This document shows positions 11,555 through 11,745 of a DNA stretch of 44,890 nucleotides, piece after piece. Origin of the DNA: Escherichia phage Ivi; sequence record PV841871.1. One strand, 5' to 3'. Position numbers and translations under genes: made by a program. Numbering within the stretch: position 1 is the stretch's first letter; each line of letters begins with the position of its first letter. A model generated the notes under the pieces. It did no database searches. It worked only from the letters and a program-made list of their open reading frames with translations, and was not told the DNA's origin.

Positions 11555-11663
11555 CGACGCTGACGAGGATTTAGCTATCGACGTTCAGAACGCCGAATGT
11601 GTACGGCAACTGAGACTGAAAGTGTTCATGTTGCAGGATTACGTGAGGAATATTCTGGAATAG
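11400..11663 (+). CDS. o-spanin (Rz1-like outer-membrane lipoprotein), overlaps the Rz 3' end in the +1 frame
   Basis: Lipobox L-A-S-C after a signal peptide, proline-rich mature region; GTG start after GAGGTGA. Confidence 0.6.
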   Translation: MKSLSTLKRLAAACALSTMLASCSSPTPLPTPIPSPDTTMMQPPCKLAPPSSDADEDLAIDVQNAECVRQLRLKVFMLQDYVRNILE

Positions 11664-11745
11664 TTGCCTTGTATGTTGGAATAATTTATTCTTGACATGT
11701 AAATCCGGGAGGCCCGGATTCCAACGTCCAGGGGACATACTGACT

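Follow-up and report, generated by a model that had tools for sequence, protein, structure and literature searches.

The segment 11647-11745 of the genome of Escherichia phage Ivi (PV841871.1; the whole stretch of 44,890 nt that was analysed is called the window below) is probably the region in which transcription and translation of the scaffold/major capsid operon start, combining a promoter, a 5′ hairpin that stabilises the mRNA and a regulator site built on the word GGAATA. In this reading, whose inferred parts are the use and start site of the promoter, mRNA stabilisation by the hairpin, and protein binding with its sign, host RNA polymerase would start an mRNA near G11699 from a moderate sigma-70 promoter. 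Approximately 3 nt would stay single-stranded ahead of a GC-rich hairpin of 8 bp with an AGG triloop, after which come the Shine-Dalgarno sequence and ATG 11746, and the transcript would run through the capsid gene to a terminator at approximately 13516-13543. The most likely role of the 5′-terminal stem-loop would be to protect the abundant late scaffold/capsid mRNA from 5′-end-dependent decay, and it may additionally be recognised by a factor. The GGAATA array would bind a dimeric DNA-binding protein, apparently distinct from the binder of the early operators, and this protein would couple the scaffold promoter with that of element A, the short unit in front of the spanin genes.

The original prediction for this region had placed palindromes built on GAATAGT-type half-sites immediately upstream of the -35 hexamers of two late promoters, at element A and at the scaffold gene, and had proposed that one regulator represses early promoters and activates these late ones. 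Its observations are partly confirmed and its interpretation partly supported. All of the strings quoted are present in the window, three of them 1 nt away from the positions given: GGAATAGTTG lies at 11657-11666 rather than 11658-11667, TTGACA at 11692-11697 rather than 11691-11696, and the perfect hairpin, which is real and has the loop AGG, has its stem AATCCGGG / CCCGGATT at 11702-11709 / 11713-11720. GAATAA-T-TTATTC (11679-11691) and the 16-bp perfect palindrome AACTATTCGAATAGTT (10900-10915, overlapping TTGACT 10914-10919) were found exactly where described. Promoters at both places are supported by the sequence; the scaffold -35 had been assigned to the wrong hexamer.

A candidate promoter in front of the scaffold gene

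The comparison covered 59 related loci from IMG/VR together with Klebsiella phage VLCpiS11a, Serratia phage Tsm2 and Salmonella phage PSDA-2, and the 100 nt before the scaffold ATG collapsed to 24 distinct sequences. The only invariant upstream bases in their alignment were TTG 11664-66, TAT 11687-89 and TT 11692-93. On the plus strand, these mark a -35 TTGCCT (11664-11669; TTG invariant, C nearly invariant) and a -10 TATTCT (11687-11692; T, A, T and the final T invariant), always separated by 17 bp, while the first seven to eight bases of the spacer vary by group (GTATGTT, GCATGTT, AGTAAGT, CTCCTGT, ATACTTT). The invariant TTG...TAT..T pattern at this spacing reaches down to approximately 55% scaffold protein identity. 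An alignment-free scan with a sigma-70 position weight matrix (PWM) returned TTG(C/T)nn-N17-TAT(T/A)(C/T)T as the best match in 24 of the 24 sequences, and in every one of them the distance from the end of the -10 to the hairpin stem was 9-11 nt. The most distant lineages carry TTGCCC-N17-TATATT (Tsm2), TTGTTA-N17-TATATT (VLCpiS11a) and TTGCAT-N17-TATATT (locus L057); TATTCT is the -10 in lineages with the GGAATA palindrome, and the stronger TATATT occupies the same place where the palindrome is lacking. From promoter geometry only, transcription is predicted to start within 11697-11701 of the plus strand, most likely at G11699, 7 nt after the -10.

In PSDA-2 and in Cornellvirus SP-031, the gene preceding the scaffold gene lies on the opposite strand, and the same TTGCCT-N17-TATTCT-hairpin block is found in the 150-nt region between them; a promoter must therefore lie in this intergenic region. 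This result bears on the idea that there is no promoter here at all and that the segment is an intercistronic spacer within a late transcript from element A which reads through the terminator at 11123-11150, with a hairpin that acts in processing or stability, or as a translational operator, and with a different function for the conserved TTG and TAT bases. The unremarkable promoter score, the lack of a terminator between the spanin and scaffold genes, and the conservation of the hairpin-to-ATG leader far beyond the needs of a promoter are all compatible with it. We nevertheless regard it as quite unlikely, given that PSDA-2 and SP-031 keep the block behind an opposite-strand gene, that conserved hexamers flank a spacer of variable sequence and fixed length, that the -10-to-stem distance is constant, and that the small-terminase leader described below has the same layout directly past a terminator.

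Several facts weigh against the promoter that we propose. The site TTGCCT-N17-TATTCT agrees with the sigma-70 consensus at 8 of 12 positions (4/6 in each hexamer), and its 10.9 bits are not above chance, with 29 sites of at least 10.5 bits in the window against 37 expected. In this phage the interval from the spanins to the scaffold gene has no terminator, and read-through transcripts must therefore also cover the region. No transcript-start data for any phage of the Guernseyvirinae were found in the literature, and the K1B4 transcriptome paper (PMC12645636) gives gene-level classes, without a per-gene expression table or start sites. The promoter is thus inferred from conserved hexamers, drifting spacer and geometry, not from the score; our promoter scan tool, which requires 9/12 matches, missed it. 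The promoter list of fBC-Eco01 (PMC9825357) has no entry in front of the scaffold gene and leaves out the GGAATA palindrome, and the scaffold promoter, the leader hairpins and the palindrome are unannotated in the records checked (Jersey, SETP3, Snoke, Bas76) and in the literature checked.

The hexamer TTGACA (11692-11697, plus strand), which the original prediction took for the -35, falls instead in the discriminator/start-site region. It was thought to belong to an activator-dependent late promoter starting at approximately 11725, with the palindromes binding a Cro- or AlpA-like early repressor through GAATAGT half-sites. TTGACA is indeed a perfect consensus hexamer, kept in Kaguna- and Cornell-like loci; a palindrome followed by TTGAC occurs at both places; GAATAGT is enriched in the window (14 vs 4.4 ± 1.9 expected) and located in early promoters; and two helix-turn-helix (HTH) genes, HTH_3 and HTH_17, exist. 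Against this, no -10-like hexamer follows TTGACA, the best partner in the PWM scan being CGGATT/CCGGCT with 4.0 bits, and the position where a -10 should stand falls in a covarying hairpin (CGGATT / CGGTGT / CGGCTA). The hexamer reads TTGTTA in Jersey-like loci, three other lineages (L054, L057, L064) lack it even though their hairpin is retained, it is not enriched in the window (16 vs 22 expected), and the spacing of palindrome and hexamer is not the same at the scaffold and element A sites, with a difference of 6 bp. As set out below, the regulator proposed with it fares no better, since genomes can have the early dyad or the GGAATA palindrome without the other, HTH_17 is missing in SP-031 and the 16-bp palindrome is limited to one genus. 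Altogether, this explanation appears highly improbable.

Leader hairpins of the scaffold and small-terminase transcripts

Between the predicted start and ATG 11746, the plus strand can form two hairpins. Hairpin 1 (11702-11720), AATCCGGG-AGG-CCCGGATT, has 8 bp and is the centroid structure of the folded leader. Its pairs were counted on 16 distinct 25-mers aligned on the loop without gaps; MAFFT mis-gapped the 3′ arm of the hairpin. In the helix register, 95.3% of cells were paired against 21-50% with a slid partner, the covariation score was 0.37 against 0.03-0.05, and four of the eight pairs had changed on both sides (AU/GC/UA, AU/CG, AU/GC/UA, CG/AU). Several sequences contain U.G or G.U pairs; read on the opposite strand these would not pair, which places hairpin 1 in the plus-strand RNA. 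No variation is seen in the upper five pairs or in the GG of the loop, and any of the four bases can come first in the loop. Downstream of the stem is CCAACG rather than a U tract, and the terminator scan did not report it, so hairpin 1 is not an intrinsic terminator.

The small hairpin 2, GUCC-AGG-GGAC (11726-11736, 4 bp), was predicted in the minimum free energy fold and overlaps the Shine-Dalgarno sequence AGGGGA (11730-35); the single compensatory event seen in it (GACC...GGUC in L054/L063) is weak evidence. The segment between the hairpin and the ATG is a strongly conserved Shine-Dalgarno region. Public records differ in the scaffold start codon, Snoke using the TTG of TTGACA at 11692 (251 aa) and Bas76 the ATG at 11746 (233 aa); the conserved Shine-Dalgarno sequence, the proposed promoter and the hairpin favour ATG 11746 as the probable start. 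A search of Rfam 15 gave no match at the gathering score in the whole window, and for 10850-11800 at E ≤ 1 one match at chance level (E = 0.9).

Helices of 8 bp with an NGG triloop occur exactly twice in the window, with both strands scanned, against 0.33 expected: at 11702-11720 and at 5322-5340. The second one, AGACGCGT-AGG-GCGCGTCT, starts 6 nt past a TATAAT (5310-15) in front of the small-terminase gene and is followed by a UGG-loop hairpin (5344-63), so that the plus-strand leader 5310-5363 is a parallel case. The wider interval 5262-5383 holds a terminator, TGTACA-N18-TATAAT, the two hairpins, the Shine-Dalgarno sequence AAGGGGA and an ATG at approximately 5381. This layout is kept in six genomes of five lineages (Kaguna-, Jersey- and Cornell-like, Tsm2, VLCpiS11a), and consists of a terminator, a promoter (TTGCCT-N17-TATAAT in three genera), an AGG/UGG-loop hairpin and a second UGG-loop hairpin; every lineage has its own stem, and a compensatory change separates the Kaguna and Jersey versions of the second hairpin. 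The repeated early-type promoters have no such hairpins downstream. A promoter followed by 5′ hairpins thus looks like the standard front end of the late units.

As to the role of the hairpin, pairing under selection was shown, and its distance from the 5′ end rests on the predicted start. Two facts count against our proposal here: the folding energy of the leader is unexceptional (z = -0.33), and the invariance of the apical 5 bp and of the loop GG is not needed by a passive stabiliser and hence hints at sequence-specific recognition. The promoter may accordingly be right and the hairpins be a recognition element for a phage factor, either an antiterminator loaded from RNA, which would take polymerase past the terminators within the late region, or the scaffold protein repressing its own translation as in P22, whose scaffolding protein was reported to regulate its own translation (bioRxiv 10.1101/2022.12.13.520362). 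Covariation confined to the lower stem below an invariant apical CCGGG-NGG-CCCGG, tandem (A/U)GG-triloop hairpins in both late leaders in every genus examined, and terminators inside both late units (approximately 8666-8697, 13516-13543 and 17990-18021) would all suit such a factor. At the same time, no candidate RNA-binding protein and no Rfam match were found, and the invariance of the GC-rich apex may reflect a need for stability. The triloop is also unlike the pentaloops of boxB. We consider recognition as the main role possible although somewhat unlikely, and retain mRNA stabilisation as the preferred one.

A broader and doubtful proposal is that the late operons of the Guernseyvirinae (terminase/portal and scaffold/capsid) share a control module, in which a host-type promoter is directly followed by tandem (A/U)GG hairpins. 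These would load, or be recognised by, a phage late factor (an RNA-dependent antiterminator, or the scaffold protein regulating itself), and a second factor bound at the dyad would time the lysis and head genes. In the Kaguna/Jersey/Cornell branch the GGAATA dyad, present in 2-3 copies, would then bracket the spanin genes, possibly with looping over the approximately 780 bp between the copies.

GGAATA sites, element A and the early operator

Two direct GGAATA words, 10 bp apart on the plus strand (11647-52 and 11657-62/63), end against the scaffold -35. Kaguna-, Jersey- and Cornell-like loci all keep the proximal GGAATAG, and PSDA-2 and SP-031, in which it is not part of a coding sequence, are among them; the distal word is not conserved in Cornell-like loci. 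Further downstream, the palindrome GGAATA-att-TATTC (11678-11691) was found at the homologous place in 58 of the 70 fetched loci. It covers positions 9-17 of the spacer and positions 1-5 of the -10, with its left half fixed, and GAATAA-T-TTATTC within it therefore does not lie upstream of the conserved promoter.

The predicted promoter of element A, TTGACT-N17-TAAGCT (10914-10942, plus strand, 12.1 bits), with a TG at -15/-14 that makes an extended -10 (TGaTAAGCT, 10934-10942), corresponds to the host promoter HP1 of fBC-Eco01 (PMC9825357, Table S2). Here the palindrome does stand just upstream of the -35, as originally claimed, and at both promoters a GAATAG word adjoins the -35 (GAATAG|TTGACT 10908-19, GGAATAG|TTGCCT 11657-69). 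The second exact copy of the palindrome in the window, GGAATA-aac-TATTC (10894-10907), is kept in three genera with diverged flanks. Two direct GGAATA words 9 bp apart on the minus strand (10862-10876, TATTCC-agc-TATTCC on the plus strand, approximately -87 to -73 from the element A start) are conserved in Kaguna-, Jersey- and Cornell-like loci even without the neighbouring minus-strand gene. The architecture upstream of element A in the three genera is [TATTCC-N3-TATTCC]-N16/17-[GGAATA-N3-TATTC]-6 nt-[-35]-[TGnTAnnCT]; within it the -35 degenerates (TTGACT, TAGACT, TGGAYT), and AAAAAG can take the place of GAATAG in the 6 nt. These loci were compared by motif-anchored extraction, a wide MAFFT alignment having mis-placed the Cornell-like and distant loci.

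The 16-bp perfect palindrome arises where the right half of the GGAATA palindrome meets a GAATAG word. It is restricted to Kagunavirus and broken in four loci (L004, L008, L023, L040), and Markov-1 simulations of the window produce a perfect palindrome of 16 bp in 54% of cases, so that its length alone is uninformative. It is not what is conserved, since Jersey- and Cornell-like phages keep GGAATA-N3-TATTC with AAAAAG replacing GAATAG; on comparative grounds, the conserved unit is GGAATA-N3-TATTC, and the longer palindrome is a Kagunavirus-specific junction of two GAATA-based words. Perfect palindromes of at least 12 bp are depleted in the whole window (4 vs approximately 12 expected), which could reflect restriction-site avoidance.

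Exact GGAATA-N3-TATTC occurs twice in the window (10894 and 11678) against 0.04 expected, and the two densest GGAATA/GAATAG clusters of the window are the scaffold and element A promoter regions. The centre of the palindrome falls at approximately -48.5 at the element A promoter and approximately -14.5 at the scaffold promoter, and the three central bases (element A / scaffold) are aac/att in Kagunavirus, ctt/att in Jerseyvirus and aat/att in Cornell-like phages. The unit is probably the site of a sequence-specific dimeric protein; this reading appears the likeliest because 11 bases and the 3-bp gap have stayed fixed amid drift of the centre and flanks. Nevertheless, no binding protein for the array was identified among the open reading frames (ORFs) examined, which speaks against this part of our proposal. 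In Cornell-like phages, a third exact copy (minus-strand reading) was observed at the start of the o-spanin ORF (ATGAATAAATTATTCC...), namely in L045 (1906-1919), L047 (1953-66), L050 (1737-50), L052 (1369-82) and L067 (26069-82).

The GGAATA words could alternatively be AT-rich phased DNA that shapes promoter strength, as a UP-like element or by curvature, with the palindrome arising because TATTC serves as the -10. The right half of the scaffold palindrome is in fact the -10 itself, and the words at 11647, 11657 and 11678 are spaced 10 and 21 bp and hence lie on one helix face; we also take the AAAAAG beside the -35 of the Jersey- and Cornell-like element A promoters to resemble a proximal UP subsite. 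Such an explanation is unlikely, since the same 11 bases and 3-bp gap recur at two sites in three genera around different centres (AAC, CTT, AAT, ATT), and 2-3 copies per genome with no others are what the footprint of a sequence-specific dimer would look like. A dimer-binding site is therefore retained here.

A paralogous element A promoter (43218-43246, TTGACT-N17-TGcTAAGCT) has the same core and lacks the GGAATA array. It heads a second copy of element A (43218-43470, cf. 10914-11150) with the same 5′ hairpin and a changed loop; the two copies are 89% identical over 43316-43360 vs 11012-11056 and have no Rfam match. Element A is more likely a structured RNA than a small ORF, because the small ORF annotated in it in relatives is not kept in the 43218-43470 copy. 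In Tsm2 (L066), inverted repeats TTCCGCACA-N12/13-TGTGCGGAA lie upstream of both element A-like promoters (9585-9650 and 20375-20415), and the TTCCGCACA repeats occupy the place of the GGAATA array of the Kaguna, Jersey and Cornell phages.

The GAATAG-type half-site does occur in early promoters, as the original prediction had it: it is half of the dyad AATAG-N4-CTATT, which lies over the spacer/-10 of two promoter classes (TTGCAC-N17-TACTAT and TTGACA-N17-TATAGT) and is present in seven exact copies in the window (85, 10818, 20012, 33268, 36886, 39803 and 43542) and in 11 with at most one mismatch (39848 among these), against 1.1 expected. The word GAATAGTT is likewise enriched (7 vs 1.2 expected). 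The same dyad is the 'phage promoter' repeat of fBC-Eco01, tgAATAGTa-ccTATTat-T, and the source of the GAATAGT word. That repeat was assigned to a phage RNA polymerase (PMC9825357), whereas the annotation of the relative Bas76 includes no RNA polymerase gene, for which reason host polymerase is assumed throughout this work. At two places the dyad, with one mismatch, overlaps a -35: AATAGTTGACTTTT (10909-22), found in Kagunavirus only, overlaps the -35 of element A, and ACTAGTTGACTATT overlaps the -35 of a strong promoter-like site at 3776-3809 (TTGACT-N17-TATATT, 15.5 bits).

One regulator for the early and late sites is contradicted by the exact dyad counts in six complete genomes. AATAG-N4-CTATT and GGAATA-N3-TATTC number 7 and 2, respectively, in the window and also in Bas76, 4 and 2 in Jersey, 0 and 3 in SP-031, 2 and 0 in Tsm2, and 0 and 0 in VLCpiS11a, so that SP-031 and Tsm2 form a double dissociation. 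The geometry of the half-sites differs as well, AATA-N6-TATT in the early dyad vs AATA-N3-TATT in the GGAATA palindrome. The scaffold site also fails as an early operator, since AATAGTTGCCTTGT has two mismatches and its right half varies among relatives; in Tsm2, an early-type dyad with one mismatch, AATAGTGCGCTATA, does lie over the spacer/-10 of the scaffold promoter. Because the dyads dissociate across genomes and differ in half-site spacing, these comparisons argue for separate binders. The early control region of SP-031 still holds GAATAGTTAT repeats, and a shared GAATA-reading fold for both dyads is a caveat to be kept in mind.

Two HTH genes were recognised in the window, HTH_3 (39892-40107) and HTH_17 (42928-43170). 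The HTH_3 (Cro-like) gene is present everywhere examined, with 41-96% identity, and the early dyads near it look like an auto-regulated operator set, because two copies flank this gene at 39892. The AlpA-like HTH_17 protein, proposed earlier as a binder of the late sites, was rejected: no homologue is found in SP-031, which keeps the palindromes, or in Tsm2, and its distribution in the database does not include Serratia phages. The sole predicted DNA-binding protein with a matching profile (present in Kaguna, Jersey and Cornell phages, absent from Tsm2 and VLCpiS11a) is a NinH-like ORF at 4865-5101. Its Pfam match scores 23.4 bits where the curated cut-off is 29.8, it has its profile in common with several other small ORFs, and the GGAATA site does not fit the preference of lambda NinH for G-N13-C (PMC7166090), so that it may be regarded as a weak lead. 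To our knowledge, the spacing of the GGAATA element fits none of the host factor consensuses for the RcsAB box, the ARG box, Fur, Fis, Lrp, DnaA and CpxR.

Genome context and comparison with known systems

The window is the genome of a Kagunavirus (Guernseyvirinae), a virulent siphophage of E. coli; over 10200-12500 it shares 99.9% identity with Escherichia phage vB_EcoS_fPoEco01, and matches to this region came from 483 phage records. According to annotated relatives, the head morphogenesis and Hoc-like genes are followed by an optional minus-strand gene (10270-10791), the element A unit (approximately 200 nt; promoter 10914-10942, terminator 11123-11150) and the i- and o-spanin genes (11168-11663), the stop codon TAG of the latter (11661-63) lying within the proximal GGAATAG. 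The scaffold gene (ATG 11746-12447) and the major capsid gene (12450-13499), both on the plus strand, form the one unit that the proposed promoter would serve, and an intrinsic terminator with the sequence AGAGGGAC-ttcg-GTCCCTCT-TTTC follows on the same strand (13516-13543); a terminator is annotated there in phage Snoke. With tblastn at E ≤ 1e-4, the major capsid protein matched Bas76, Jersey and SP-031 and gave no match in Tsm2 and VLCpiS11a. The capsid gene of these last two phages may belong to a different module, because it is unmatched even though their scaffold proteins are homologous to that of the window.

Kagunavirus and Jerseyvirus phages are widely isolated and are used for therapy and biocontrol. 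The corrected promoter, the leader hairpin and the dyad are cheap targets for reporter, footprinting and mRNA half-life work and for engineering the expression of capsid fusions. Additionally, the analysis corrects the TTG scaffold start of some records and the published view that the AATAG repeat serves a phage RNA polymerase.

Compared with known systems, the feature is a well-conserved example of ordinary kinds of elements. A stem-loop at the 5′ terminus makes E. coli mRNAs more stable, according to studies cited in PMC3997798 (Emory, Bouvet & Belasco 1992; Bouvet & Belasco 1992; Arnold et al. 1998). The scaffold leader resembles the stabilisers of the ompA and papA 5′ untranslated regions in that a highly expressed mRNA is predicted to begin a few nt before a hairpin with compensatory changes, and differs from them in its invariant apex and loop GG, which recur in a second late leader.

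The element A region is also like lambda pR'-6S RNA-tR' with Q and like the AlpA system of P. aeruginosa (PMC9371919, PMC7969949): a strong promoter, an RNA of approximately 200 nt, a strong terminator, then lysis and head genes, with a small DNA element beside or inside the promoter. A loading site of the Q/AlpA type, judged by the published family criteria (PMC9371919), was nevertheless rejected, as no conserved -10-like pause element follows either start and HTH_17 is absent in SP-031, which keeps the element. The HTH residues of AlpA are positions 128-142, and the HTH_17 protein of the phage, unlike AlpA, has 79 aa; the position of the DNA element moreover differs between the two promoters. 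In its arrangement the GGAATA dyad resembles the lambdoid Cro/CI operators, in which a dyad can cover the core promoter, as at the scaffold gene, or stand upstream of the -35, as at element A, the latter recalling CI at OR2, which activates PRM. It departs from these operators in that its half-site spacing and genome distribution differ from those of the early dyad, and in that it belongs to a genome with no immunity/lysogeny module.

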